Virus record (IMG/VR): IMGVR_UViG_3300023174_006137
Location: 95,492 to 159,491 of that record
Length of the DNA stretch: 64,000 bases
Reading direction: 5' to 3' (one strand)
DNA from: a virus
The translations under genes and the position numbers were made by a program. The notes beneath the pieces were generated by a model. It was given only the letters and a program-made list of their open reading frames with translations, ran no database searches and was not told where the DNA came from. Of the stretch, positions 11,626 through 44,233 are shown in pieces. Each line of letters starts with the position of its first letter. Within the stretch, counting starts at the first letter, position 1.

Positions 11626-11631
11626 ATGTAG

Positions 11632-11714
11632 TTGCCAAGACAGGACTCGAACCTGTATTTACTTCTCGTCCTCCGCTTTCAAAGAGCGGGATGCTACCAT
11701 TACACCACTTGGCA
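11632..11714 (-). tRNA. tRNA-Gln(UUG), long variable region
   Basis: CCGCT-CT TTG AA-AGCGG; canonical GGTTCGAGTCC. Confidence 0.85.
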
Positions 11715-11773: not shown

Positions 11774-11821
11774 TCAATCTGGTTTAAATAATTGTTGTTG
11801 TTGAGAAGTTAAAGTTTTCAT
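11774..11821 (-). promoter_or_regulatory. Leader peptide MKTLTSQQQQLFKPD (Gln-sensing attenuator)
   Basis: Four tandem CAA codons; 3' CAGATTGA is complementary to terminator arm TCAATCTG. Confidence 0.85.
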
Positions 11822-12700
11822 TTTTTTATAATAATTTATAAATTTTTCTATTTCAGTTTTTATATATTCTTTTCCTGCTTCGTTATTTATTGATTGCCAT
11901 TTTATTCTATAAATATTAAAATGTTTTAATAAATTTTTATCTCTTTCATTATCATGTTCAACTCTATATTCATGTTGTTTACCATCTATTTCTAAATCAA
12001 TATTTCCTTCTTTAATATAGAAATCTAAAAAATAATTTCCATTTCCTTCTATATTATATTCTTTTTTTATTATAGTTTTATTAGGCTCATATTTTATGCC
12101 ATTGTTTTCTAATACCATTTTGAAAAACTTTTCTGGATAACTTTCAATATTTCTTGATTGCCAACCTTTATGTGTTCCATTTTTTATTCTTTCTTTAACT
12201 GAATCTCTTAATTTATTTTTATATTCCTCGCTTGTAAATTGACACTTTTTACTACAATATTTTCGATTAATATTTTTTCCAGTATATGTTTTTTTACAAT
12301 TGGGACATTCTTTTATGTATTCCTCTTCATTATATTTTTTATTCCACGGAATATTATTTTTTAATGTATTAGATATTTTTTTACATCTTTCCTCATATTT
12401 TTCTTTATCAAAATTAGTATTATTTTTACCATGTTGATAATAAGAATTTGAACATGACGATGAACATGTTTTCTTACCATTTTCTGTTGTTTCAAATTCG
12501 TTAAAACAAATAGGACAAATAAGTTTAATTTTTTGGTATTTTCTATTTTTGTTTTTATTTTCAAAAATAGATTTATTAAATCCATTTTGTTCTAAAACTT
12601 CTGCTGCCTTTTTATTGCTTCGTCCATTAGAATAACCATATAATTTTATGGCTAAGTCATTAATGGAAAAACTTTCATTTATAATTTTAATGATATCCAT
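11774..12700 (-). CDS. Putative homing endonuclease (Zn fingers plus DUF559/Vsr-like PD-(D/E)xK domain), in frame with the Gln leader peptide
   Basis: CPIC..CS..C repeats, SYPE, Y.LDF, EIDGKQH, D..RD..L; true start MDIIKII after a TATATA motif. Confidence 0.7.
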   Translation of the reverse strand: MDIIKIINESFSINDLAIKLYGYSNGRSNKKAAEVLEQNGFNKSIFENKNKNRKYQKIKLICPICFNEFETTENGKKTCSSSCSNSYYQHGKNNTNFDKEKYEERCKKISNTLKNNIPWNKKYNEEEYIKECPNCKKTYTGKNINRKYCSKKCQFTSEEYKNKLRDSVKERIKNGTHKGWQSRNIESYPEKFFKMVLENNGIKYEPNKTIIKKEYNIEGNGNYFLDFYIKEGNIDLEIDGKQHEYRVEHDNERDKNLLKHFNIYRIKWQSINNEAGKEYIKTEIEKFINYYKKMKTLTSQQQQLFKPD

Positions 12701-12741
12701 AAGATATATATTAAAATTGTCGGAGAAAGTTTTTCCGAACC

Positions 12742-12820
12742 TGGTCGAGAAGGTGAGATTCGAACTCACGAGTTGTCTTGGTCCCAAACCAAGCCGGGTA
12801 CCTGACTCCCGAACTTCTCG
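12742..12820 (-). tRNA. tRNA-Pro(UGG), CCA encoded
   Basis: C1-G72; CTTGG-TT TGG GA-CCAAG. Confidence 0.85.
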
Positions 12821-12826
12821 TTTTTG

Positions 12827-12900
12827 CGGTCTGTACCGGGTACGATCCGGCAACCTTCCCCGTGACAGGGGGATATTGTATCCATTTCTACTAACAGACC
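12827..12900 (-). tRNA. tRNA-Asp(GUC)
   Basis: TCCCC-CT GTC AC-GGGGA; G73; T-loop ATCGTAC. Confidence 0.85.
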
Positions 12901-12986: not shown

Positions 12987-12992
12987 ATTTCG

Positions 12993-13077
12993 TCTGGGTG
13001 ACAGGGCTCGAACCTGCATAAGATGTTAATCATTCTCCTGTCCAAGAGGAGTCGGCTTCCATTGCCTTCACACCCAG
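12993..13077 (-). tRNA. tRNA-Pro(UGG), long variable region
   Basis: C1-G72, A73; CTCCT-CT TGG AC-AGGAG. Confidence 0.8.
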
Positions 13078-18099: not shown

Positions 18100-18105
18100 A
18101 TTTTG

Positions 18106-18191
18106 TACCGCTAGCAGGACTCGAACCTGCACTATCTTTACAGAAAACGGATTATGAGTCCGTCACAATTACCACATCTGCTCATAGCGGC
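18106..18191 (-). tRNA. tRNA-Met/Ile2(CAU), long variable region
   Basis: ACGGA-CT CAT AA-TCCGT; cognate leader has internal ATG codons, favouring Met. Confidence 0.75.
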
Positions 18192-18866: not shown

Positions 18867-18942
18867 TAGCACTCCTGGGATTTGAACCCAGAACTCTCAG
18901 GTTCTAAAGCTGAGTCCTCTGCTCTTGTTGGGATAGAGTGCC
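18867..18942 (-). tRNA. tRNA-Leu(UAG), short variable loop
   Basis: TCAGC-TT TAG AA-CCTGA with C31xC39 mismatch; A73. Confidence 0.65.
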
Positions 18943-18947
18943 ATAAT

Positions 18948-18977
18948 AAAAAAATCCCGTCAAATTGACGGGATTTT
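18948..18977 (-). terminator. Attenuator terminator of the Leu/Met/Arg tRNA operon
   Basis: AAAATCCCGTCAA-T-TTGACGGGA-T7. Confidence 0.88.
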
Positions 18978-18999
18978 AAATAATCTTAAAAATAAGAAT

Positions 19000-19068
19000 T
19001 TACATAAGAATCCCGTCCAATGTTTCCATTAGATTAAGCAAATTCATATTTAGATTCCTATTTCTCAT
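19000..19068 (-). promoter_or_regulatory. Leader peptide MRNRNLNMNLLNLMETLDGILM (Leu/Met/Arg attenuator)
   Basis: Codons AGG, CTA, ATG, TTG, CTT, CTA, ATG; GACGGGATT is complementary to terminator AATCCCGTC. Confidence 0.88.
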
Positions 19069-19100
19069 ATTATTATATATTAATTTTTTATTTCTTTTTA

Positions 19101-19131
19101 CAAAAGTAAGAAAAAATTTTTATTTTACAAA
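19101..19131 (-). promoter_or_regulatory. Bacteroidota sigma70-type promoter of tRNA operon 2
   Basis: TTTG ... TACTTTTG. Confidence 0.7.
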
Positions 19132-19160
19132 TTTTTTTTAAAATTTTTTTCTTGTGGTAA

Positions 19161-19421
19161 TTAACTAAATGTTATTTGATCATAATCATACCAATCATTT
19201 TTAGTATAGTCCCAATGTCTAAAATCATAAAAACTGATATGAAAATATACTAATTTTAATAACTCTATGCGAAATTCAACACCAGCATGATCACATTTAG
19301 AACGTGACTGCAATGAAATTACAAACCAATTGGCTAGGTCATTTAAGGTTAATTGTATTTCTATACCTTTATGTAAAGTTATTTGTTTAAAAAATAAAAA
19401 GGTTTTACTAAATTTTTTCAT
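19161..19421 (-). CDS. Hypothetical phage protein
   Basis: 86 aa; DHAG..F.....L....I.FYD.RHWD pattern. Confidence 0.6.
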   Translation of the reverse strand: MKKFSKTFLFFKQITLHKGIEIQLTLNDLANWFVISLQSRSKCDHAGVEFRIELLKLVYFHISFYDFRHWDYTKNDWYDYDQITFS

Positions 19422-19456
19422 GTAGAATTATTTTTTCTTATATATAAATTTTTTTG

Positions 19457-19545
19457 AGTGCAAAACAGGATTCGAACCTGTGATGTTGGAATTTACCAAG
19501 ACACTTTTGCAGAGTGCCGCTTTCGACCACTTAGACTACTTGCAC
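19457..19545 (-). tRNA. tRNA-Cys(GCA), long variable arm
   Basis: GCACT-CT GCA AA-AGTGT; U73. Confidence 0.8.
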
Positions 19546-19552
19546 AAATTAG

Positions 19553-19625
19553 AGGTGCTGATAAGAATTGAACTTATGTATTAGATTTTGCAGATCTACG
19601 CCTCAAACCGCTCGGCCACAGCACC
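19553..19625 (-). tRNA. tRNA-Cys(GCA)
   Basis: TAGAT-CT GCA AA-ATCTA; U73. Confidence 0.88.
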
Positions 19626-19636
19626 ATTAAATTAAG

Positions 19637-19709
19637 AGCTAAAGAACGGATTCGAACCGATATCATCTTTCATACCAAGAAAGTACCTAAACCATTCAGT
19701 CACTTCAGC
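19637..19709 (-). tRNA. tRNA-Thr(GGU)
   Basis: CTTTC-TT GGT AT-GAAAG. Confidence 0.85.
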
Positions 19710-19715
19710 ATTAAG

Positions 19716-19789
19716 AGCTAAGGAAGGGATTCAAACCCTCATATTCTTCATTACAAGTGAAGCGCCTAATTCAGTTCAGCCACCTTAGC
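19716..19789 (-). tRNA. tRNA-Thr(UGU)
   Basis: CTTCA-CT TGT AA-TGAAG. Confidence 0.85.
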
Positions 19790-19796
19790 ATTTTTG

Positions 19797-19869
19797 TTGT
19801 CCTGGTGGGTAACGATCCCACTGCCTCGATCTTATCAGGATCGCCATCTAACCATTGATATACAGGACA
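19797..19869 (-). tRNA. tRNA-Ile(GAU)
   Basis: CGATC-CT GAT AA-GATCG; T-loop ATCGTTA. Confidence 0.82.
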
Positions 19870-19879
19870 ATTTTACTTG

Positions 19880-19952
19880 TTGGATTGATCGGTTACGATC
19901 CGACTCTCTACACGATATCAGCGTGTTGCTTTCCCGATTAAGCTACAATCCA
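19880..19952 (-). tRNA. tRNA-Ile(GAU)
   Basis: ACACG-CT GAT AT-CGTGT; T-loop ATCGTAA. Confidence 0.82.
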
Positions 19953-19957
19953 AATTG

Positions 19958-20031
19958 CGGGAGTAGTAGGACTCGAACCTACCACCATTCGATTAACAGT
20001 CGAATGCTCTAACCAACTGAGCTATACTCCC
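19958..20031 (-). tRNA. tRNA-Asn(GUU)
   Basis: TTCGA-CT GTT AA-TCGAA; G73. Confidence 0.92.
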
Positions 20032-20037
20032 AATTTG

Positions 20038-20110
20038 TATTCTTGATCGGTTACGATCCGATTACCTCCACCATGTCACAGTGGCGCTCTCCCAATTGAG
20101 CTACAAGAAC
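20038..20110 (-). tRNA. tRNA-Val(GAC)
   Basis: CCACT-GT GAC AT-GGTGG; T-loop ATCGTAA. Confidence 0.82.
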
Positions 20111-20115
20111 ATTTG

Positions 20116-20187
20116 CTGATGAGGAGAATTACGATATCTCGACTCTCGCCTTAACAGGGCGACACTCTGCCTCTGAGTTACTCACCA
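20116..20187 (-). tRNA. tRNA-Asn(GUU)
   Basis: TCGCC-CT GTT AA-GGCGA; G73; T-loop ATCGTAA. Confidence 0.8.
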
Positions 20188-20194
20188 ATTTTTG

Positions 20195-20281
20195 TGATCC
20201 TAACAGGATTCGAACCTGTGTTAACATTTACTGCCTCAGGCTTGTAAAACCTGCGCTCTAAACCAACTGAGCTATAGGATC
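20195..20281 (-). tRNA. tRNA-Val(UAC), long variable region
   Basis: CAGGT-TT TAC AA-GCCTG. Confidence 0.82.
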
Positions 20282-20287
20282 AGTTTG

Positions 20288-20361
20288 TAGTTCCAGCGGG
20301 ATTCAAACCCAGCATGAAGGCTTTAGAAGAGCCTCGTCCTATTCAGTTAAACGATGGAACC
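20288..20361 (-). tRNA. tRNA-Arg(UCU)
   Basis: AGGCT-CT TCT AA-AGCCT. Confidence 0.85.
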
Positions 20362-20366
20362 ATTTG

Positions 20367-20439
20367 TCGGAGCGCCGGGAGTCGAACCCGATTTAAGTGT
20401 GTATAAGACACCTGTGCTATACCGTTCTACTACACTCCG
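20367..20439 (-). tRNA. tRNA-Ile(UAU)
   Basis: GGTGT-CT TAT AC-ACACT; C1-G72 acceptor. Confidence 0.78.
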
Positions 20440-20445
20440 TTATTG

Positions 20446-20532
20446 TGGCTCAGGTCGGGGTCGAACCGACACGGGCGTTGCGGCCCACGGGATTTTAAGT
20501 CCCGCATGTATTACCAGTTTCATCACTGAGCC
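20446..20532 (-). tRNA. tRNA-Leu(UAA)
   Basis: CGGGA-CT TAA AA-TCCCG; class II arm. Confidence 0.9.
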
Positions 20533-20545
20533 ATTTTATTTACTT

Positions 20546-20580
20546 AAAAAAAAAATCTCAAACTTTTGAGTTTGAGATTA
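20546..20580 (-). terminator. Attenuator terminator of the 13-tRNA operon
   Basis: AATCTCAAACT-CAAA-AGTTTGAGA followed by a long T run. Confidence 0.88.
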
Positions 20581-20602
20581 AATCCAAATATAAAATATTT
20601 TA

Positions 20603-20704
20603 TTACACCTGTCGATTTAATCCCATACCAACTCTAATCACACATAACGTATTGTTATTTATGATTAAATTATTATTAATGGTATTTCTACAAATGTTTT
20701 TCAT
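20603..20704 (-). promoter_or_regulatory. Leader peptide MKNICRNTINNNLIINNNTLCVIRVGMGLNRQV (N/I/C/R/T/L/V attenuator)
   Basis: 23 consecutive codons drawn only from the operon's amino acids; GAGTT..TGGGATTA is complementary to terminator TAATCTCA-AACTC. Confidence 0.88.
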
Positions 20705-20791
20705 ATAGCTTATATATTTAAATTTAATTTTGTTTTTTTGTCTTATGGACTTTTTATTGTTTTATTTGCTTGTTTGTTTTTAATTATAATG

Positions 20792-20822
20792 CAAAGATAC
20801 GCAAAAGTTTTAAAATAGCAAA
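20792..20822 (-). promoter_or_regulatory. Bacteroidota sigma70-type promoter of tRNA operon 3
   Basis: TTTG ... TATCTTTG. Confidence 0.75.
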
Positions 20823-20860
20823 TTTTTTTTCAATTTTTTTATATTTTTCTTTTAATAATA

Positions 20861-21193
20861 TCAATCATTTATTATATCATTTATTTTTTGCTCACGATGT
20901 ATAGCTAATGGTATAAAATTATCAGAAATAATACCACCAAACCAACATTCTGGCATATCAATTATATCTCCAATTTTATATTCTCGTATCTCTTTTATAC
21001 ATATAAAAGGTATAATTGAATATAATGATGATATTGGAACATTAAATTTAGTTTGCGTATTTAATTTAAATACCAAAGCTCGTTTTTTTCCATCAAAAGA
21101 AATTAAGGAACACTCACCATTATTCCATGACTGCGATGCAGAATCACTATACAAATAGTAAGTGTTTCCTATAATTAATTTTTTTGCTTCCAT
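20861..21193 (-). CDS. Hypothetical protein with C-terminal RxxKIxxI tag
   Basis: Ends REQKINDIIND. Confidence 0.55.
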   Translation of the reverse strand: MEAKKLIIGNTYYLYSDSASQSWNNGECSLISFDGKKRALVFKLNTQTKFNVPISSLYSIIPFICIKEIREYKIGDIIDMPECWFGGIISDNFIPLAIHREQKINDIIND

Positions 21194-31036: not shown

Positions 31037-31222
31037 TTATAAATAATAAGTATCTGTTGGAAGTGACTTTATTTTTTGTTCTTCCAATTGCTTATCCATT
31101 ATATTAATAGCAGCTATATGATTTGGTTTATCTAATATAATTACTTTATCTTCTTCTCTAAGTTTATCCATAATTATATGAGTTTTGCTTATTTTATTTG
31201 GTTTATATTCTTTTTCTTCCAT
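31037..31222 (-). CDS. Hypothetical protein
   Basis: 61 aa ORF. Confidence 0.45.
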   Translation of the reverse strand: MEEKEYKPNKISKTHIIMDKLREEDKVIILDKPNHIAAINIMDKQLEEQKIKSLPTDTYYL

Positions 31223-31225
31223 ATA

Positions 31226-31378
31226 TTATATATTCTCTTTGATTTCTTCTTCTTTCCATCCTTCTTCTTCATAATATGAGTATTGTTCACGCAATTTCAT
31301 ACCTTCAGTTGGTTCCAAAATGACTAATGCTTCAGGATTTAATTTCTGAAGCATTTCAATAAGTTCTTTTACTTTCAT
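31226..31378 (-). CDS. Small hypothetical phage protein
   Basis: MKVKELIEMLQKLNPEALVIL..., 50 aa. Confidence 0.55.
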   Translation of the reverse strand: MKVKELIEMLQKLNPEALVILEPTEGMKLREQYSYYEEEGWKEEEIKENI

Positions 31379-31379
31379 A

Positions 31380-31485
31380 GAGTCAAAGCAGGAATCGAAC
31401 CTGCGATTGCTTTACCATACAGAGTGCCATTAGCCGTTAATCTCAACCTTTGGAGGTGCTTATGTTGCCACTACACTATTTGACT
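31380..31485 (-). ncRNA. Aberrant tRNA-like RNA (expanded centre, no clear anticodon stem)
   Basis: 7-bp acceptor AGTCAAA/TTTGACT, D-arm GTGT/ACAT, T-arm GCAGG TTCGATT CCTGC. Confidence 0.55.
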
Positions 31486-31505
31486 ATTTTTTATATTTTT
31501 GATTT

Positions 31506-32032
31506 TTATGAAAGTTTATATCTTTTTTCTTTCATTTTATTAATACGGTTTTTAAAATCAAGTAAAAAAGATTCAGGTATTCTAATTCCCCTTTCTTCAA
31601 ATTCTTTTAAAATTTCTTCTTCTGTAAAACACCAATCAGCAATACCTTCTGCCCACATATTTAAATATAATCCCCAAGATTTTTTACCAATTATAACTGA
31701 TTTCAATATATTTGGATGTCTGCAAATTATTTTTCTTGTTTTAAAGTATCCATCATCAAATAATCTAAATCCTTCTCTGCTACATGTAGAATTTATATCA
31801 AATTCTACTTCTATGTTTTCGCCACAGAATGTTAATAGTCCAGAACGATATACTTTTAAAAAGAAATTAAATTTTTCATTAAAACTATCAGAAAATTTTC
31901 GTAATTTACGACTATGACGAGTGCCATATTTAGATTGAGTAATTTGTTTTTTTTGTTTAAAGTCGTAAGAGGATTGAGTTCCCGTTACGACTAAATTGCG
32001 ACCAGCGTGGTGCCTCCGAAATTTTGATTCAT
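31506..32032 (-). CDS. Hypothetical protein (~175 aa) requiring a -1 frameshift at codons 4-5
   Basis: ATG AAT CAA AAT TTC contains A_AAT_TTC; the -1 frame is open to 31506 with no ATG/GTG/TTG start before the TTG at 31706. Confidence 0.55.
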
Positions 32033-32053
32033 AGTTTTATTTTTTATTTTTAG

Positions 32054-32126
32054 TGGAGAATGACGGTTACGATCCGACTACTTAGGTTTGCAAAACCCAT
32101 GTTTTACCAATTACAACTAATTCCCC
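32054..32126 (-). tRNA. tRNA-Ala(UGC)
   Basis: G3:U70; TGGGT-TT TGC AA-ACCTA; T-loop ATCGTAA. Confidence 0.85.
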
Positions 32127-32197
32127 TCTTAATGAAATGTCAACTGTTCCGGTTGGTGTTTTAAATCTTTCAATCCGTGGTTGACACTTCATTTTTG

Positions 32198-32271
32198 AGT
32201 CGATAACCGGGTTCGAACCGGCTCTATTCCAGCATGGCAAGCTGGTGCACCACCAATTATGCGTTATCGAC
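32198..32271 (-). tRNA. tRNA-Gly(GCC)
   Basis: CCAGC-TT GCC AT-GCTGG; U73. Confidence 0.85.
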
Positions 32272-32913
32272 TTTTTTAATAATTCTACCTTTTATCCATC
32301 CCATACTCAAATATTGATTTAAATCCATTTTTTTAATTTTTTTATTTCCAAATTCAAAATGATATATCCAACAAGTTCCATACTGTGAGTTTTTTTCTCC
32401 TTTTTGATTTTCTGAATTTTTTTCTCCTATTTTGATTTTTGTCTCTTCTTTATGCTTTTTGCCAGTCCAATTAGGAGGATTCTTCAATACACCTAATTCT
32501 CTGAGTTTTTTATTCTGTATAATCATTCTTTCTTTATTTCTTTTTATAAATTCAGGATTATTCCAGTTAATTTTATTCATAGAGATAGCCGCCTTTTTAT
32601 TTTTTTCTTTTCTTAAAATAATATTATTATTTATAGATTCAAAACAATCGCCACCTATAATTATGTTATAAACATCAGTTCTTTTTATAAACTCCTCATT
32701 AACTATTTCTCTTTCTTTCAAATATGCTTCATTTTCATCAGTAAATATGAATAATATTTCTTTTCTAAAATTTTCTATTCCATATTTTTGTATTGCTCTT
32801 TTTATATATTTTCCACTACCCATATATTCGTCATCTAAATTATTTGTAGAGTGTTTTCCTATATAAAATTTTCCATTTAATATATTTTCTATTTTGTAAA
32901 TTGTATGTAACAT
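32257..32913 (-). CDS. GIY-YIG (Seg-like) homing endonuclease with NUMOD3
   Basis: IYKIEN..NGKFYIGKH, Y.GSG, KYG.ENF..E, G.KH..ETK.KI; stop codon lies inside tRNA-Gly. Confidence 0.88.
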   Translation of the reverse strand: MLHTIYKIENILNGKFYIGKHSTNNLDDEYMGSGKYIKRAIQKYGIENFRKEILFIFTDENEAYLKEREIVNEEFIKRTDVYNIIIGGDCFESINNNIILRKEKNKKAAISMNKINWNNPEFIKRNKERMIIQNKKLRELGVLKNPPNWTGKKHKEETKIKIGEKNSENQKGEKNSQYGTCWIYHFEFGNKKIKKMDLNQYLSMGWIKGRIIKKVDNA

Positions 32914-32965
32914 AATTTTAAACTATTTTATTTATATATAAAATAGTTCGAGTCCTGTTACTCAG

Positions 32966-33036
32966 AGCAGAATGTGGGAATCAAACCCCGTCTCCACGTT
33001 GGAAGCGTGGCACTTTATCATTAAGCTACATTCTGC
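32966..33036 (-). tRNA. tRNA-Gly(UCC)
   Basis: CCACG-CT TCC AA-CGTGG; U73; shortened T-stem. Confidence 0.78.
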
Positions 33037-33042
33037 ATTTCG

Positions 33043-33114
33043 AACTACCGAGCGGTTACGATCCGCCTACTCCGGGGTGAAAACCCAGTATTTTCCCGAT
33101 TAAACTACGGTAGC
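33043..33114 (-). tRNA. tRNA-Glu(UUC)
   Basis: CTGGG-TT TTC AC-CCCGG; T-loop ATCGTAA. Confidence 0.78.
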
Positions 33115-33122
33115 ATTTTTTG

Positions 33123-33193
33123 TAGCACCGAGGGGTTACGATCCCCCGACTGATCCTTGAAAGGGACCCGATTTACCATTAATCTACGGTGCC
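33123..33193 (-). tRNA. tRNA-Glu(UUC)
   Basis: GGTCC-CT TTC AA-GGATC; T-loop ATCGTAA. Confidence 0.82.
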
Positions 33194-33345
33194 ATATCTT
33201 GTATTTTATGTAAGATATAAGTTATTTGCGTTTCATTTATTTGAATTGTACCTCTTAATTTAATCCAAAAAATAGCATTAACAATCACTACAATAAAAGT
33301 TTTTCAATTTCAATCTCAATTTTTCATACATTTTTTTATTTTTAG

Positions 33346-33427
33346 TGGGTTAGGTAGGACTCGAACCTACGAACTCAAACGAGGGCGGATTTACAGTCCG
33401 CTGCAATTGCCACTATGCGACTAACCC
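33346..33427 (-). tRNA. tRNA-Tyr(GUA)
   Basis: GCGGA-CT GTA AA-TCCGC; class II arm. Confidence 0.92.
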
Positions 33428-33435
33428 AATTTTTG

Positions 33436-33528
33436 TGCCTCAGGTAGGACTCGAACCTACTTACTGCGTGCCAATACGACTATTTGTTAAAGCAGACTTG
33501 TTTTACAGACAAGTGCCGTTACTAAGGC
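33436..33528 (-). tRNA. D-armless tRNA-Tyr(GUA)-like RNA with oversized variable arm
   Basis: Acceptor GCCTTAG/CTGAGGC, 8-nt linker, CTTGT-CT GTA AA-ACAAG, ~36-nt extra arm, canonical T-arm. Confidence 0.65.
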
Positions 33529-33536
33529 TTATACAC

Positions 33537-33570
33537 AAAAAAAGCGTCCAACTTTTGGTTGGACGCTTTT
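33537..33570 (-). terminator. Attenuator terminator of the Tyr/Glu/Gly/Ala operon
   Basis: AAAAGCGTCCAAC-CAAAA-GTTGGACGC-T7. Confidence 0.9.
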
Positions 33571-33593
33571 ATATAGTATTTTTGTTATTTAAC

Positions 33594-33689
33594 TTAACTA
33601 CATAACTTACCAACCTCTGAGTGTTTACCCTCATAGCCATACGCTCCTTCATAAGCGGCTGTTGTTAATATGTTATTTAAGTTAGTCAT
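33594..33689 (-). promoter_or_regulatory. Leader peptide MTNLNNILTTAAYEGAYGYEGKHSEVGKLCS (A/Y/E/G attenuator)
   Basis: 11 consecutive A/Y/E/G codons; GGTTGG is complementary to terminator CCAACC. Confidence 0.88.
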
Positions 33690-33726
33690 AAAACTTGTTT
33701 TTTAATTGTTTATTTCTTTTGTAGTG

Positions 33727-33756
33727 CAAAGATACATAAAAGTTTTGAACTACAAA
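33727..33756 (-). promoter_or_regulatory. Bacteroidota sigma70-type promoter of tRNA operon 4
   Basis: TTTG ... TATCTTTG. Confidence 0.75.
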
Positions 33757-33794
33757 AATTTTTTTAGAAAATTTTTTATTTTCTTATTTATATA

Positions 33795-34238
33795 TTATTT
33801 TTCTAATGTCTCTTTTTGCTCTTTTTTCAATTCACGAATTCTTTCTTGAATTAATTGTTTTGTTTTAGGATTTTCAACCTTCTTATAAATAAGATTCAAT
33901 TCCTCAATTAATTCCTTTAAATGATCGTCATCATCATCAACTTCTTCTAAAATTTCTTCCATTGTTTCACTTATTTCATCAATATCTTCTTGTATTGTTT
34001 CAATATTCTCATTGTTTAAATTAATTGACATCTGAATAAAAATTGAAAGATATATAGCCTCTAAACTTACTATATTAGTAACTATATTCAACATTCTATC
34101 AAATGCAATTAAACCTGTATATGGTAATATAAACGAACCGGCAAATAATATTGTATGCAATATTACCGAAGTAGGCGAACCTATCCATTGTGTAATCGAA
34201 GAAGCTGATTTTCTCATTATTTCTTTTCCTTGTTTCAT
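33795..34238 (-). CDS. DUF1003-like membrane protein
   Basis: WIGS..S...H, VSLEAIYLSIFIQMS.N; two TM segments. Confidence 0.7.
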   Translation of the reverse strand: MKQGKEIMRKSASSITQWIGSPTSVILHTILFAGSFILPYTGLIAFDRMLNIVTNIVSLEAIYLSIFIQMSINLNNENIETIQEDIDEISETMEEILEEVDDDDDHLKELIEELNLIYKKVENPKTKQLIQERIRELKKEQKETLEK

Positions 34239-40285: not shown

Positions 40286-40630
40286 TTAAAGTCTTTCAGA
40301 TTTTTTATAGGCTAATTCATAACTGGAATTAATCTTTTTATAAAGATTTTCTGCTGTAAATTCCTTTAAATAATCTCCTTTATTCTCAATTATATATTTT
40401 TCTGTATACCCACAATTAAATTGCTCGGCTTTAAAATGACAACCATCATAACAATCACATAGTGTTATGCCATTTTCCTTACAATATCCACCATTTGGCA
40501 TTAACTTTCTATTTGTAATATGATGTGCATCTAGCTTTGCATCCGTTCTGCCACACATAACACATTTAAAATTATCTCTTTCAAATACATCTTTACGAAA
40601 TTTTTCTCTAATTTGTTGTTTTATCTTCAT
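40286..40630 (-). CDS. HNH endonuclease
   Basis: VFERDNFKCVMCG, LDAHHI, NGITLC...CH. Confidence 0.82.
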   Translation of the reverse strand: MKIKQQIREKFRKDVFERDNFKCVMCGRTDAKLDAHHITNRKLMPNGGYCKENGITLCDCYDGCHFKAEQFNCGYTEKYIIENKGDYLKEFTAENLYKKINSSYELAYKKSERL

Positions 40631-40632
40631 AG

Positions 40633-40719
40633 AGGAAAACAGGATAGTCGAAATCCGCCCAACTTAATGGGTTCTCGTTTTCCAAACGAGCGGGGACACC
40701 TTTCCCACCTATACTTTCC
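40633..40719 (-). tRNA. tRNA-Ser(GGA) with non-canonical 8/4 fold
   Basis: Acceptor GGAAAGTA/TGTTTTCC (8 bp), T-stem GGAT/ATCC (4 bp), CTCGT-TT GGA AA-ACGAG, long V-arm. Confidence 0.7.
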
Positions 40720-40724
40720 ATTAG

Positions 40725-40811
40725 TGACTCCAGAAGGATTCGAACCCTCATAAAACATATACTGTCTCCCCGTTCGTAGCGGGGCGTTTTAATCCATTAA
40801 ACTATGGAGCC
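40725..40811 (-). tRNA. tRNA-Arg(ACG), long variable region
   Basis: CCCCG-CT ACG AA-CGGGG. Confidence 0.82.
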
Positions 40812-40818
40812 ATTTTAG

Positions 40819-41053
40819 TATTCAGAACGGGATTCGAACCCGCAAAGATTTCATAAATTATAACTTGGAAACCTGCTTCCTGAGTGTTTCCCAGTGCAAT
40901 CTGTTAACCTTGTGTTATAAACCCTCCACCCATTGGTCTTACAGCGGTTATTCACAACCATTCTTTGAATGCCTTTGGTAGTTAGTTAAAATCCCTCATT
41001 TTATGAGTATCCTTAGTGTTTTGGGACTGTTTTTCCTATTAAACTATCTGAAT
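40819..41053 (-). ncRNA. 235-nt tRNA-framed structured RNA
   Basis: Perfect acceptor ATTCAGA/TCTGAAT-A, D-arm GTTT/AAAC, T-arm GCGGG TTCGAAT CCCGT enclosing ~180 nt of multi-stem sequence. Confidence 0.65.
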
Positions 41054-41058
41054 ATTAG

Positions 41059-41143
41059 CGGTAGATACAGGATTCGAACCTGTGGAGCCCGAAGGCTCGG
41101 CAGTTTAGCAAACTGCTGGTATAGACCACTCACCCAATCTACC
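41059..41143 (-). tRNA. tRNA-Ser(GCU)
   Basis: GCAGT-TT GCT AA-ACTGC; V-arm GAGCC TTCG GGCTC; G73. Confidence 0.92.
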
Positions 41144-41148
41144 AAAAT

Positions 41149-41180
41149 AAAAAAGCCTCAGAAATAAATCCGAGGCTTTT
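41149..41180 (-). terminator. Attenuator terminator of the Ser/Arg operon
   Basis: AAAAGCCTCGGA-TTTATT-TCTGAGGC-T6. Confidence 0.88.
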
Positions 41181-41198
41181 AGTATAGACAATACACTA

Positions 41199-41255
41199 TC
41201 ATCTTCGGATTTCGAAGTTAAAACTACTGCGACTAGAAGAAAATATTGTGTTCAT
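41199..41255 (-). promoter_or_regulatory. Leader peptide MNTIFSSSRSSFNFEIRR (Ser/Arg attenuator)
   Basis: TCT TCT AGT CGC AGT AGT; AAATCCGA is complementary to terminator TCGGATTT. Confidence 0.88.
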
Positions 41256-41299
41256 ATACTATATATTAGTTTTTTATTTTTTGTTTTTATTTATTTTTA

Positions 41300-41329
41300 C
41301 AAAAGTAATATTTTTTTTGATTTTGCAAA
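41300..41329 (-). promoter_or_regulatory. Bacteroidota sigma70-type promoter of tRNA operon 5
   Basis: TTTG ... TACTTTTG. Confidence 0.7.
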
Positions 41330-41330
41330 A

Positions 41331-41861
41331 TTATCCAAACCTACTTAAAATAAAATCATCATCGTCATCATCGTCATCATCATTATCACTTTCGTCGATA
41401 ATATAATTTTCAATTTCCTTTTTTAATATATTACATTTTTCATAATTCTCGTTATATAATGCTTTAGCATATTCAGAATACAAAATTAAAAGATCGTCAT
41501 CATATTTACACAATTTGGAAATCTCATCATATAATTCATAATCCTTCATTTGTTCTGTATTATCATGTTCCAATTCATAATTATAAGTCATATTTTCTAT
41601 TTCTTCGTCAGTTTTATTTTCAAAATCTTTATCACGAAACCCTAATGCATATGCAAATTCTTTTATAGTTGGTATATTCTCAATATTTTCTTTTTTTAAT
41701 CTTTCCAAATATCCATCATACATTTGTTTCAAAGTAAATAAATCACCAGTTTTAAGATTTGATTGTTCTAGTTCATATCTTTTAAGAGATAAGTCAACTA
41801 TTTTTTGATTAAAAATAGACTCTTTTAATAAAAATAATTTATAATTGTTAATATATTTCAT
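41331..41861 (-). CDS. Acidic late protein with UVR-like motif and poly-Asp tail
   Basis: MKYINNYKLFLLKE; ALYNENYEKC..LK.EI; poly-D run. Confidence 0.55.
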   Translation of the reverse strand: MKYINNYKLFLLKESIFNQKIVDLSLKRYELEQSNLKTGDLFTLKQMYDGYLERLKKENIENIPTIKEFAYALGFRDKDFENKTDEEIENMTYNYELEHDNTEQMKDYELYDEISKLCKYDDDLLILYSEYAKALYNENYEKCNILKKEIENYIIDESDNDDDDDDDDDFILSRFG

Positions 41862-41952
41862 ATAAGTATATATTTATTTAAAAATATCATAAATATGCAA
41901 GCGTTCTATCCAATCCTTTAAATTATAATATAGATTATTTGTGAGTTCGTTG

Positions 41953-42025
41953 TCCGCCTGCCGGGAATCGAACCCGGCCCCATAGTTTAAAAGACTATTG
42001 CCTACAACCAGTTTGCTACAAGCGG
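41953..42025 (-). tRNA. tRNA-Lys(UUU)
   Basis: ATAGT-CT TTT AA-ACTAT. Confidence 0.85.
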
Positions 42026-42034
42026 TTAAACTTG

Positions 42035-42109
42035 TGTCCCCAGTAGGATTCGAACCTACAACCCGTTGGTTAAAAGCCAACTACTCTAAGCCAATTGAGC
42101 TATGAGGAC
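42035..42109 (-). tRNA. tRNA-Lys(UUU)
   Basis: GTTGG-CT TTT AA-CCAAC. Confidence 0.92.
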
Positions 42110-42196
42110 TAATTTTGTTAAGCACTCACTACTAATTGGTGCTTAACTAACCTGTTTCTGTTTTCGTTTTATTTGTTTCATACAATAATTTTTTTG

Positions 42197-42284
42197 CGGC
42201 AGATTAGAGAGTTCAACTCTAACAACGGATGATTACGTTCTAGCAATTTTCAAGATTGTGTACCTCAGTCAACTGGGATCTGCC
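42197..42284 (-). tRNA. tRNA-Ser(UGA), atypical D/T arms
   Basis: CAAT-CT TGA AA-ATTG; long V-arm; G73. Confidence 0.62.
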
Positions 42285-42291
42285 ATTTCTG

Positions 42292-42375
42292 CGGAAGTTG
42301 ACGGACTCGAACCCTCACAGCTTTTACACCTTCACCGTTTTCAAAACGGCTAACTACTCCTAATTAGGAACTTCC
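42292..42375 (-). tRNA. tRNA-Ser(UGA), atypical D-arm
   Basis: GCCGT-TT TGA AA-ACGGT; long V-arm; G73. Confidence 0.72.
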
Positions 42376-42380
42376 AATTG

Positions 42381-42457
42381 CACGGGTTGTAGGATTTTCA
42401 CCATTTAAACATTAACTTCCTTGCCGGAAGGTGTCTTAAATTTTAGACGAAACCCGT
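42381..42457 (-). pseudogene. Degenerate tRNA-like element overlapping the HNH stop codon
   Basis: Acceptor ACGGGTT/AACCCGT and D-stem GTCT/AGAC present, but 5-nt anticodon loop and broken T-arm. Confidence 0.5.
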
Positions 42458-43315
42458 ATTTTTATATTGTTTTAACCATTTTCTTATTACAGCCTCACTT
42501 ACTCCAAATAATTTACCTGTTCCTGTATTTCCGTTTTCTTTAACAAGTTTCATTAATTCTTCATAAGAAGGTCTATTTTTCACTTTTCTTTGTTTTATAG
42601 AACTACATATTTTGCATAATTTGCTATCTTTTGATATAATTTTACCACAAAAACATTTTTTATGTGTTTTTTCATTTTTATATTCATCTAATTCTTTATC
42701 ATACAATCTTTTAGTTTTATTGCTCCCACAATTAGTTTCCAAGGTAGAATTGCAATTAGGACAAACTATTCTTAAATTTTCAAGACGATTATCATAAGCA
42801 TCACCATTTATATGATCAAGTATATGAACTATTTTAGAATCATTAAACCAATTTTCATCTTGTCCGCATATTTCACAAATTTTATTTTTTATACCTTCTT
42901 TATATAATTTATTTTTTATTACTTTTCTCGAAACAAAAGAATCTTTATTCAGTATATCATCCAAATTTAAAGAATTTTTTGGCTTATTGCCTAACTTAAA
43001 ACCAGATTCAAAATGCTCAATATCTATATTATATAATTTTATATATTTTTTAATTGTTTGAAAATTACCAGAACATCGTGGTGATAAACCTAATTTTATT
43101 ATACATTCTGTATAACTTTTACACTCTTCAACTAATTTTTCAAATTCTTCTTTATTTTCATAAATATATGTTCTTTTTAATTTCAATTTTTTTGCCATTT
43201 CTTGACATGCTCTTTTTGTTCTACCAATCATATTGGCACAATAATCAGCACCCATTTTTGGAAAAAAATCACATAATAACTCTTTTTCTTTTTCTAACCA
43301 TTCATTCGAACTCAT
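42443..43315 (-). CDS. HNH homing endonuclease
   Basis: CEICG..W, LDHINGD..DNRLENLRIVCPNC, C-terminal HTH (GVSE..IRKW). Confidence 0.88.
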   Translation of the reverse strand: MSSNEWLEKEKELLCDFFPKMGADYCANMIGRTKRACQEMAKKLKLKRTYIYENKEEFEKLVEECKSYTECIIKLGLSPRCSGNFQTIKKYIKLYNIDIEHFESGFKLGNKPKNSLNLDDILNKDSFVSRKVIKNKLYKEGIKNKICEICGQDENWFNDSKIVHILDHINGDAYDNRLENLRIVCPNCNSTLETNCGSNKTKRLYDKELDEYKNEKTHKKCFCGKIISKDSKLCKICSSIKQRKVKNRPSYEELMKLVKENGNTGTGKLFGVSEAVIRKWLKQYKNTGFV

Positions 43316-43363
43316 ATTTTTACATTTGTTTAACTTATATATAAAAATATGAGTTCGCCCCTT

Positions 43364-43438
43364 TGGTGGTATCTACAGGTAACGATCCTGACTCTAATGT
43401 GCTTCAAACATTCGCTAATCCATCTCAGCTAAGATACC
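43364..43438 (-). tRNA. tRNA-Phe(GAA), CCA encoded
   Basis: AATGT-TT GAA GC-ACATT; T-loop ATCGTTA. Confidence 0.82.
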
Positions 43439-43444
43439 ATATTG

Positions 43445-43515
43445 CACGAGTTACAGAAATCGAATCCGTTCGACAAGGGTTTTGGAGACCCTCCGGCTAC
43501 CTTAGCCTAACTCGT
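43445..43515 (-). tRNA. tRNA-Trp(CCA)
   Basis: AGGGT-CT CCA AA-ACCCT; G73; compact D-arm. Confidence 0.8.
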
Positions 43516-43521
43516 ATTTAG

Positions 43522-43612
43522 GGCGATATGTGGGATTCAAACCCACGGTGTTTGATACAATCTCATTCAGGGTCACAGCCTGATTCCTTCGTTCACTCGG
43601 ACCAATACCGCC
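43522..43612 (-). tRNA. tRNA-His(GUG), long variable region, G-1 encoded
   Basis: TCAGG-CT GTG AC-CCTGA; G-1:C73. Confidence 0.78.
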
Positions 43613-43676
43613 ATTTTTACACTCTTCACCAGATTAACGGACTGGCTGCCATATAGGAAGTGAGTGTAAAACTCCG

Positions 43677-43750
43677 GGAGTAAGACGGGGATCGAACCCG
43701 CTGCCTCAGGTGCCACAAACCTGCGCTCTACCAAATGAGCTACCTACTCC
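43677..43750 (-). tRNA. tRNA-His(GUG), G-1 encoded
   Basis: CAGGT-TT GTG GC-ACCTG; G-1:C73. Confidence 0.88.
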
Positions 43751-43756
43751 ATATAC

Positions 43757-43788
43757 AAAAAAAGCCGAACTATATAGTTCGGCTTTTT
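43757..43788 (-). terminator. Attenuator terminator of the His/Trp/Phe/Ser/Lys operon
   Basis: AAAAAGCCGAACT-ATAT-AGTTCGGC-T7. Confidence 0.9.
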
Positions 43789-43810
43789 ATTTCTTAAAAC
43801 AATAACTCTT

Positions 43811-43903
43811 TTATGAAGTCTTGTTATTGAAACATAACTCTACCGAACTCTGATTTCTAAACCAGAATTTAAACGAATGTTTATGTGAGCTAAAATGTTT
43901 CAT
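43811..43903 (-). promoter_or_regulatory. Leader peptide MKHFSSHKHSFKFWFRNQSSVELCFNNKTS (K/H/F/S/W attenuator)
   Basis: 14 consecutive K/H/F/S/W codons; AGTTCGGT is complementary to terminator GCCGAACT. Confidence 0.9.
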
Positions 43904-43952
43904 AAAATACTTTTTTAAAATTATTATTGTTTTTGTTTTTATTTTTATTTAG

Positions 43953-44024
43953 TAGCGGGGAGTGGACTTGAACCACTGATCTCTGGGTTATGAGCCCAGC
44001 AAGATGCCGCTTCTCTACCCCGCA
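43953..44024 (-). tRNA. Initiator tRNA-fMet(CAU)
   Basis: CTGGG-CT CAT AA-CCCAG (three G-C pairs); 1:72 mismatch. Confidence 0.88.
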
Positions 44025-44057
44025 GTATGTCTTTTTTATTTGTTTTTTATTATAAAG

Positions 44058-44088
44058 CAAAAGTAAGAAAAAGTTTTTGATTTACAAA
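44058..44088 (-). promoter_or_regulatory. Bacteroidota sigma70-type promoter of tRNA operon 6 (second copy at 44142-44172)
   Basis: TTTG ... TACTTTTG. Confidence 0.7.
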
Positions 44089-44233
44089 ATTTATTTTAAT
44101 TTTCTTTTCTTTTTTATCTTTACTTTCTTTGTTATTTTATACAAAAATACAAAGAAGTTTTGAAATAACAAAATTATTTTTATATTTTTATTTAATGTAT
44201 ATATTATATTTAAAATATGGTTTTTTGCACTTT

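Follow-up and report, generated by a model that had tools for sequence, protein, structure and literature searches.

The 64,000-nt stretch of DNA analyzed here (hereafter the window) is the final 64 kb of a 159,491-bp virus contig, IMG/VR record IMGVR_UViG_3300023174_006137, and has a G+C content of 26%. ARAGORN detected 39 tRNA genes in the window, which were located on the minus strand without exception. Thirteen of them form an array in the order Leu-UAA, Ile-UAU, Arg-UCU, Val-UAC, Asn-GUU, Val-GAC, Asn-GUU, Ile-GAU (two copies), Thr-UGU, Thr-GGU and Cys-GCA (two copies), and their placement by ARAGORN and Rfam agreed exactly with the order and the anticodons listed in a first-pass annotation of this DNA. 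The array is preceded by a promoter, a short open reading frame (ORF) and an intrinsic terminator, as summarized in Table 1. This leader, and its probable function as a transcription attenuator of the tRNA genes behind it, are the subject of this report.

The leader ORF is the only gene between the promoter and the array, the first tRNA gene of which starts at 20532, and neither a promoter match nor a terminator match was found within the array. Only two terminator-like sites were present on the minus strand in the region 18900-21000, each directly 3' of a leader. No terminator match was seen 3' of the array, and its transcripts may continue into the second attenuator, that of the neighboring Leu/Met/Arg operon.

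A pattern search showed that the Bacteroidota-type promoter sequence, TTTG-18-20 nt-TAnnTTTG, was five-fold enriched in the window (17 observed against 3.3 expected), and six of the 17 matches were located immediately upstream of tRNA-operon leaders. Another motif, TWAATATATA, was enriched as well (17 against 6.4 expected), with sites including 19074-19083 and 20711-20720 on the minus strand. It lies a few nucleotides 5' of the start codons of both leaders and ordinary genes, and is found likewise in the phage genome LR756502.1 and 5' of the leaders of relatives described below. This motif may be a phage-specific promoter or translation-initiation element.

Table 1. The 13-tRNA operon unit and other tRNA-related features of the window
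Feature	Position	Strand	Remarks
Bacteroidota-type promoter TTTG-N19-TAnnTTTG	20792..20822	minus	Pattern search; also in relatives L063, L079 and L119
TAAATATATA motif	20711..20720	minus	Pattern search; 6 nt 5' of the leader start codon
Leader ORF	20603..20704	minus	ATG start; 33 codons and stop, then a second in-frame stop
Regulatory run, codons 3-25	20630..20698	minus	All cognate to ten downstream anticodon species
Region 1, codons 4-12	20672..20697	minus	Predicted anti-antiterminator, pairing with region 2 in ribosome-free RNA; minimum free energy (MFE) and centroid structures
Central hairpin within the ORF, codons 13-24	20633..20669	minus	Predicted fold; includes the nucleotide block common to distant relatives
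Region 2, antiterminator 5' strand	20603..20625	minus	Predicted fold; last seven codons and stop codon of the ORF
Region 3, antiterminator 3' strand	20573..20593	minus	Predicted fold; 20579-20573 in common with the terminator 5' arm
Intrinsic terminator	20546..20579	minus	Predicted, -11.7 kcal/mol; 11-bp stem, 4-nt loop and T run (hairpin 20579-20554)
13 tRNA genes	19456..20532	minus	ARAGORN and Rfam; 4-10 nt apart
Other tRNA operons: Pro/Asp(/Gln); Leu-UAG/GAG/CAA, Met and Arg-CCU; Tyr/Glu/Gly/Ala; Ser-GCU/GGA and Arg-ACG; His/Phe/Trp/Ser-UGA/Lys			
Long tRNAs with apparent extra arms	19456-19545, 20194-20281, 43521-43611, 18105-18191, 12992-13077, 11631-11714, 40724-40811	minus	
GIY-YIG, HNH and DUF559 ORFs between tRNA genes	32257-32913, 42443-43315, 11774-12739	minus	

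Match between leader codons and downstream tRNAs

All 23 consecutive codons from codon 3 to codon 25 of the leader are cognate, at the codon level, to anticodons encoded downstream under standard wobble. The pairs are TTA with Leu-UAA, ATA with Ile-UAU, ATT and ATC with Ile-GAU, AGA with Arg-UCU, GTG with Val-UAC, GTT with Val-GAC, AAT and AAC with Asn-GUU, ACG with Thr-UGU, ACC with Thr-GGU, and TGT with Cys-GCA. Codon reading of the ORF (20704-20603) thus bore out the first-pass annotation, in which the run had been described as restricted to Asn, Ile, Cys, Arg, Thr, Leu and Val and as containing all three Ile codons together with both the Thr (ACC, ACG) and the Val (GTG, GTT) classes. Asn (9) and Ile (5) prevail in the composition, followed by Leu, Thr, Cys, Arg and Val (2 each). 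The match extends to the level of isoacceptors, since Leu is encoded solely by TTA and Arg solely by AGA, and the run lacks the Lys, Phe and Tyr codons that abound in AT-rich DNA.

The 19 cognate codons account for 38% of all codon positions in the six frames. In spite of this high background, the run at 20698-20630 was the longest cognate run in the six frames of the 159,491-bp contig, where the runner-up had 13 codons, and the longest runs in 30 Markov-simulated genomes were 11-17 codons. The length of 23 codons was therefore far above chance. The leader codon counts correlated only weakly with phage codon usage (Spearman 0.49, p 0.03), which was not used as support.

The window contains five further tRNA operons of the same layout, each with a leader enriched in the codons of its own operon. 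When the cognate-codon fractions of the six leaders were calculated against the six tRNA sets, the true assignment was the best of the 720 permutations. The neighboring Leu/Met/Arg leader uses CTA, CTT, TTG, ATG and AGG, fitting the Leu-UAG, Leu-GAG, Leu-CAA, Met and Arg-CCU tRNAs, and the Ser/Arg leader uses CGC.

Alternative pairings and their conservation

In the folding predictions the leader RNA was much more stable than its shuffled versions (z -4.7), and three mutually exclusive pairings were predicted. The predicted antiterminator (20625-20573), consisting of a 12-bp and a 9-bp helix, had an energy of -18.2 kcal/mol (z -6.0), a value reached by none of 200 shuffles, and exceeds the terminator (-11.7 kcal/mol) in stability. 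Its 3' strand takes 7 nt of the terminator 5' arm. Within the ORF, codons 4-12 (20697-20672) pair with region 2 around the central hairpin, with a predicted energy of -23.8 kcal/mol (z -4.0). The central hairpin at 20633-20669 is possibly a pause hairpin. The MFE structure of the free RNA combined the 1:2 pairing with the terminator, the equilibrium probability of the terminator in free RNA being only 0.43.

The effect of a translating ribosome was modeled by masking a 28-nt footprint at each A-site codon, followed by calculation of equilibrium partition functions. The modeled probability of the terminator was at most 0.1 with the A-site at codons 5-23, and at least 0.8 from codon 24 to the stop codon; the antiterminator was predicted only while the ribosome sits on codons 5-23. 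This effective range includes codons for all of the ten anticodon species but Val-GAC.

Searches by blastn of the region against phages gave similarity at the level of tRNAs only, with the exception of LR756502.1 (642 kb). This genome carries the same system in the same order, with a hairpin and T run directly 3' of every leader. Individual leaders of LR756502.1 show an abundance of His/Phe/Lys/Trp; Ser/Arg; Glu/Tyr/Gly/Ile(ATA)/Ala; Asn/Leu/Thr/Val/Ile/Met/Cys/Arg; Asp/Gln/Pro; and Gln codons, respectively. The Gln leader uses CAG besides CAA, and the array behind it includes Gln-CUG.

An 18-nt block common to the window leader and the Asn/Leu/Thr leader of LR756502.1 was used as a search pattern. 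It gave 16 matches in IMG/VR, 10 of which were leader-terminator-tRNA units, and at least 119 matches in metagenomes. In 185,579 prokaryote genomes the same pattern had 18 matches, and no leader-like unit was among them. Among the 135 matches listed, to which the following counts refer, 82 were ORFs of 20-60 codons with a T run within 110 nt, and a tRNA was found within 400 nt in 78 of these 82, the remaining four loci being truncated. The family fronts arrays of Asn/Ile/Leu/Val/Thr/Arg/Cys(/Met) tRNAs in about 80 viral and metagenomic contigs. Across 45 distinct peptides, 98% of the residues in the regulatory part were Asn, Leu, Thr, Ile, Met, Val, Arg or Cys. Thr, Leu and Val tRNAs occurred in 100% of the 25 loci with at least 1.5 kb of downstream sequence; the proportion was 92% for Asn and Ile, 84% for Cys and 80% for Arg. 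In each of the 50 distinct leader DNAs (approximately 30% G+C), the leader frame was free of stops over 33-42 codons, partly by selection as an ORF was a requirement, while the other two frames contained 4-6 stops each.

Most relatives possess a single leader with ATG and CTN codons, and the array behind it has Met and CTN-reading Leu tRNAs among its members. The window shares its promoter, leader subtype and terminator with the three closest relatives, L063, L079 and L119. In the window and in L063 and L119, whose downstream sequence was, unlike that of L079, long enough, the Met and CTN-reading Leu tRNAs are placed behind a second leader. This second leader retains the Asn-Leu-Asn-Met part of the ancestral peptide, and all ATG and CTN codons have been lost from the run of the first leader. 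The leader content has followed the operon content in this natural experiment.

The structural regions were left out of register in a MAFFT alignment, and covariation was judged by duplex energies rather than by alignment columns. Region 2, the ORF tail just 3' of the common block, was complementary to the terminator 5' arm with z scores of -4.6 to -5.7 against shuffles in nine loci (-5.7 for the window duplex), and was always located within the end of the ORF, a segment that would be covered by a terminating ribosome. Among the matches listed, region 2 and the terminator occurred in 51 distinct combinations, which comprised 21 arm types. The duplex energy of own pairs averaged -19.4 kcal/mol against -8.9 kcal/mol for pairs of different types, and the own pair was the best in 48 of the 51 loci. 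Complementarity over such a number of arm types is more than common descent alone can yield, and the 2:3 pairing is thus under selection. The analysis of related phages suggested by the first-pass annotation thus revealed a design kept with compensatory change in about 80 related contigs. In relatives with stronger terminators the equilibrium ribosome-mask result was mixed, whereas that for the window was clean; the case for the family is therefore built on the duplex covariation.

These data bear on the view that there is no regulation at all, the ORF being either a chance AT-rich reading frame beside a leaky terminator or an RNA-processing hairpin, or the gene of a functional micropeptide. 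Short ORFs rich in Asn, Ile and Leu are indeed frequent in AT-rich DNA, and hairpins ahead of tRNA arrays could aid processing. However, the cognate run is unique in the contig, the antiterminator pairing stands out from shuffles in the nine loci and co-varies across the 21 arm types, the assignment of leaders to tRNA sets is the best of 720, and a constitutive terminator between a promoter and its sole genes would be pointless. The pattern moreover had no leader-like match in 185,000 prokaryote genomes as against about 80 among the viral and metagenomic matches listed. We consider this view hardly credible. Chance origin in particular was rejected on the strength of the run length, the permutation test, the duplex z scores, the covariation and the absence from prokaryote genomes.

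Proposed mechanism and the signal sensed

The promoter, short ORF, codon run, terminator and antiterminator were all found in the sequence with statistical support, together with a predicted anti-antiterminator, in line with the attenuator proposed in the first-pass annotation. We interpret the element, with a probability of about 0.8, as a transcription attenuator of the ribosome-mediated (leader-peptide) type by which a giant phage of Bacteroidota would sense the supply of the tRNAs of the attenuated operon. This interpretation is carried by the anatomy and the codon matching, and by the alternative pairings with their conservation and covariation, established at the level of sequence and modeled folds. 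It implies that the leader would be translated, that stalling would switch the fold in vivo, and that the signal would be the supply of tRNAs rather than of amino acids.

In the proposed mechanism, transcription would begin at the host-type promoter and a ribosome would translate the 33-codon leader. When decoding is fast, the ribosome would reach the last codons and the stop codon and cover region 2; region 3 would then pair with region 4 to form the terminator, and RNA polymerase would stop before the first tRNA gene. When any codon at positions 5-23 is decoded slowly, the ribosome would park on region 1, leaving region 2 to pair with the newly made region 3. The terminator would thereby be blocked and the 13 tRNA genes transcribed. 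Since the regulatory codons coincide exactly with those that the products of the operon read, this would constitute a negative feedback loop, in which the sensor tops up its own tRNA species and then shuts off. The phage would thus probably make these tRNAs only when ribosomes read the cognate codons slowly. Codon-usage mismatch, host shut-off and cleavage of tRNAs by defense nucleases could be physiological triggers.

The first-pass annotation had described one leader multiplexing seven amino acids. The codons of all seven are present; sensing of all seven is a further step, and the sensitivity to them is probably very unequal. In terms of the model, the seven amino acids probably correspond to an OR gate with unequal weights, dominated by Asn with nine codons and Ile with five, and with a lone codon for several tRNA species.

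Several points weigh against the proposed attenuator. According to the model, GTT at codon 25, the sole codon for Val-GAC, and the second AGA at codon 24 are beyond the effective range and too near region 2. The terminators of several relatives, with energies of -14 to -19 kcal/mol, were kept at most stall positions at equilibrium, and in relatives with such stable terminators the switch would have to work kinetically, region 2 capturing region 3 ahead of the synthesis of region 4. The mechanism would also require tight coupling of transcription and translation in Bacteroidota and in this phage. The Leu/Met/Arg leader (19068-19000, minus strand) contains five Asn codons, although its own operon has no Asn tRNA. 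Stalling also occurs under amino-acid starvation, when extra tRNA would not help, and theory predicts weak sensitivity for species represented by a single codon (PMC1183508).

The signal of such an attenuator is decoding speed, namely the supply of aminoacyl-tRNA, which depends on both the amount and the charging of tRNA, and the two are inseparable from the sequence alone (for theory, see PMC1183508). The same attenuator could accordingly report host amino-acid starvation or general translation stress through low charging instead of tRNA amount, in which case the tRNA operon would be among many genes that follow host physiology, and the codon match would indicate only which charging reactions are monitored. 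Leader-peptide attenuators do respond to aminoacyl-tRNA, and the location of a glutaminyl-tRNA synthetase gene after Gln tRNAs, behind a Gln-codon leader, indicates that charging capacity is co-regulated in at least one module. A shortage of amino acids, however, is not relieved by more tRNA. The match at the level of isoacceptors also opposes this alternative: different Leu tRNAs have TTA or CTN/TTG in separate leaders, and different Arg tRNAs likewise have AGA, AGG or CGC. Because isoacceptors of one amino acid draw on the same amino-acid pool, such a split is sensible only if individual tRNA species are sensed, and the sensing of tRNA species rather than amino acids is favored. Since hisR mutants, in which tRNA-His is less abundant, show derepression at the his attenuator, attenuators of this class respond to tRNA abundance and not only to amino-acid supply. 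Starvation as the signal is thus regarded as unlikely, and we retain the sensing of tRNA supply.

A switch made of RNA only was also considered, in which the untranslated leader would present its triplets as T-box-like specifiers that bind tRNA anticodons and thereby stabilize the antiterminator. It would share with T-boxes the logic of sensing tRNA by a choice between terminator and antiterminator, and no Shine-Dalgarno sequence is visible 5' of the leader ORF, although Bacteroidota generally lack one. Conversely, the ORF has an ATG start, its frame is the one kept open in the 50 distinct sequences despite a G+C content of about 30%, and region 2 lies invariably inside the ORF end, where a terminating ribosome could cover it. 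Neither a T-box nor any other leader family was matched in Rfam, and we know of no precedent for a run of 23 contiguous specifiers. Such a switch therefore appears very improbable.

Extending the translated attenuator to all operons, we propose with somewhat less assurance, though still with a slight preference, that giant Bacteroidota phages run a complete and modular tRNA homeostat. Each tRNA operon would be gated by a translated probe written in its own codons, and the 33-codon leader would act as an OR gate for about nine tRNA species and seven amino acids. The phage would thereby gauge, separately for each tRNA species, the ability of the infected cell to decode phage genes of 26% G+C, and replace only what is missing. 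Shortage of host tRNAs or cleavage by anticodon nucleases would be examples of the situations answered by such a homeostat. The prediction is that depletion of one isoacceptor should open one operon.

Other features of the window and comparison with known systems

Rfam and relaxed ARAGORN searches indicated additional tRNAs in the window, namely a second Asp-GUC, a second Tyr-GUA, Ala-UGC, Ser-UGA and a Trp tRNA with an insert, and a second copy of Ser-UGA was recognized by eye. By simple wobble rules, 97% of the codons in the long ORFs of the contig can be read by the tRNAs of the window. Gln is the only case in the window in which tRNAs and a synthetase are joined in one module, and this glutaminyl-tRNA synthetase was nearest (55-58% identity) to those of LR745206.1 (634,780 bp) and LR756502.1 (642,428 bp). 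The Gln-codon leader (11821-11774, minus strand, four CAA) is in frame with, and ends at the same stop codon as, a long ORF with a DUF559 endonuclease domain (region 11774-12853), and may be translated as the C-terminal tail of the DUF559 protein. The homologous Gln leader in LR756502.1 is a free-standing 17-codon ORF. The 110-aa ORF at 20861-21193, encoding a neighboring protein, had no match in IMG/VR.

Further observations concern the tRNA genes themselves. Several tRNAs that normally belong to class I (Cys, Val-UAC, His, Met, Pro, Gln and Arg-ACG) are 84-91 nt long and seemingly possess long extra arms, which is unusual in bacterial-type versions of such tRNAs. Between Ser-GCU and Arg-ACG, at 40812-41057 (minus), tRNA-like halves of the acceptor and T-arm are split by an insert of approximately 145-170 nt. 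Relaxed ARAGORN assigned this sequence as an intron-containing tRNA, and Rfam gave no group I or group II intron match in it. A structured 350-nt stretch at 42110-42460 (minus) contains the Ser-UGA tRNA (42291-42375), its probable second copy at approximately 42196-42290 and a further tRNA-like piece. A Lys-rich mini-ORF of 12 codons (42181-42143, minus) lies ahead of two Lys tRNAs, with a hairpin that lacks a T run. Homing-endonuclease-like ORFs (GIY-YIG, HNH, DUF559) interrupt tRNA operons between tRNA genes. A 64-nt hairpin is located between two His tRNAs (43612-43675, minus), and an AT-rich gap of 151 nt separates the Tyr and Glu tRNAs (33194-33344, minus).

Searches for related regulatory RNAs over the whole window at the Rfam gathering score returned tRNAs only, with no Thr_leader, Leu_leader, His_leader, Trp_leader, T-box or intron family. 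Searches at a permissive E-value, which covered 31200-33800 and 40500-44200 and thus regions outside the leader region 19457-20822, returned tRNAs and chance matches only. No description of leader-peptide control of tRNA genes was found in the full-text literature, a coverage that leaves out most subscription journals, nor was any described in a survey of attenuators. The words 'attenuat' and 'leader' have no occurrence in a paper on huge phages (PMC7162821).

The class of mechanism, attenuation, is known, while its use on tRNA genes, the extent of multiplexing and its setting in a phage are new. If the interpretation is true, these would be the first tRNA genes under ribosome-mediated attenuation and the most multiplexed attenuator known, multivalent attenuation being extended from two or three to seven amino acids. 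Matching by codon would mean that the phage senses its decoding capacity directly, per tRNA species, which would turn the textbook amino-acid sensor into a sensor of tRNA supply. Phage tRNA genes are usually attributed to codon-usage compensation or to escape from tRNA-targeting defenses, with, to our knowledge, hardly any account of the control of their expression. Given the abundance of the family in metagenomes from lakes, sediments and other sources, the mechanism would be widespread ecologically, and the leaders would offer natural, compact and orthogonal biosensors at the tRNA level. The 13-tRNA module is a clean case, with cognate codons throughout its run, a thermodynamically clean switch in the model, and a split of the operon mirrored by a split of the leader.

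Among known systems, T-box riboswitches resemble the window leader in that a leader RNA reads the status of tRNA and chooses between terminator and antiterminator. T-boxes, however, bind uncharged tRNA through a specifier loop and the conserved T-box sequence without the need for translation, whereas the window leader has an ORF, presumably translated, and no T-box match.

The multivalent leaders of enterobacteria, thrL (Thr/Ile), ilvGMEDA (Leu/Val/Ile) and ilvBN (Val/Leu), are similar in overall design, with a promoter, a short ORF containing regulatory codons for several amino acids, exclusive 1:2, 2:3 and 3:4 pairings, and a terminator, the pairings and the terminator being predictions in the present case. 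Unlike these leaders, which sample two or three amino acids and regulate biosynthetic enzymes, the window leader samples seven amino acids and ten anticodon species and regulates tRNA genes. It is also codon-matched by isoacceptor, resides in a phage with Bacteroidota-type promoters, and has no sequence or Rfam relationship to them.

Another functional parallel is provided by leaders of aminoacyl-tRNA synthetase genes. The pheST operon of Escherichia coli is controlled via the pheM leader. His-codon leaders precede hisS/hisZ paralogues in bacilli (PMC2965389). In both cases, a ribosome stalled on cognate codons governs a gene that serves the decoding of the same amino acid and gives feedback on aminoacyl-tRNA supply, as proposed here. 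Those leaders control a charging enzyme for one amino acid, whereas the leader in the window would control the tRNAs themselves, and many species of them.

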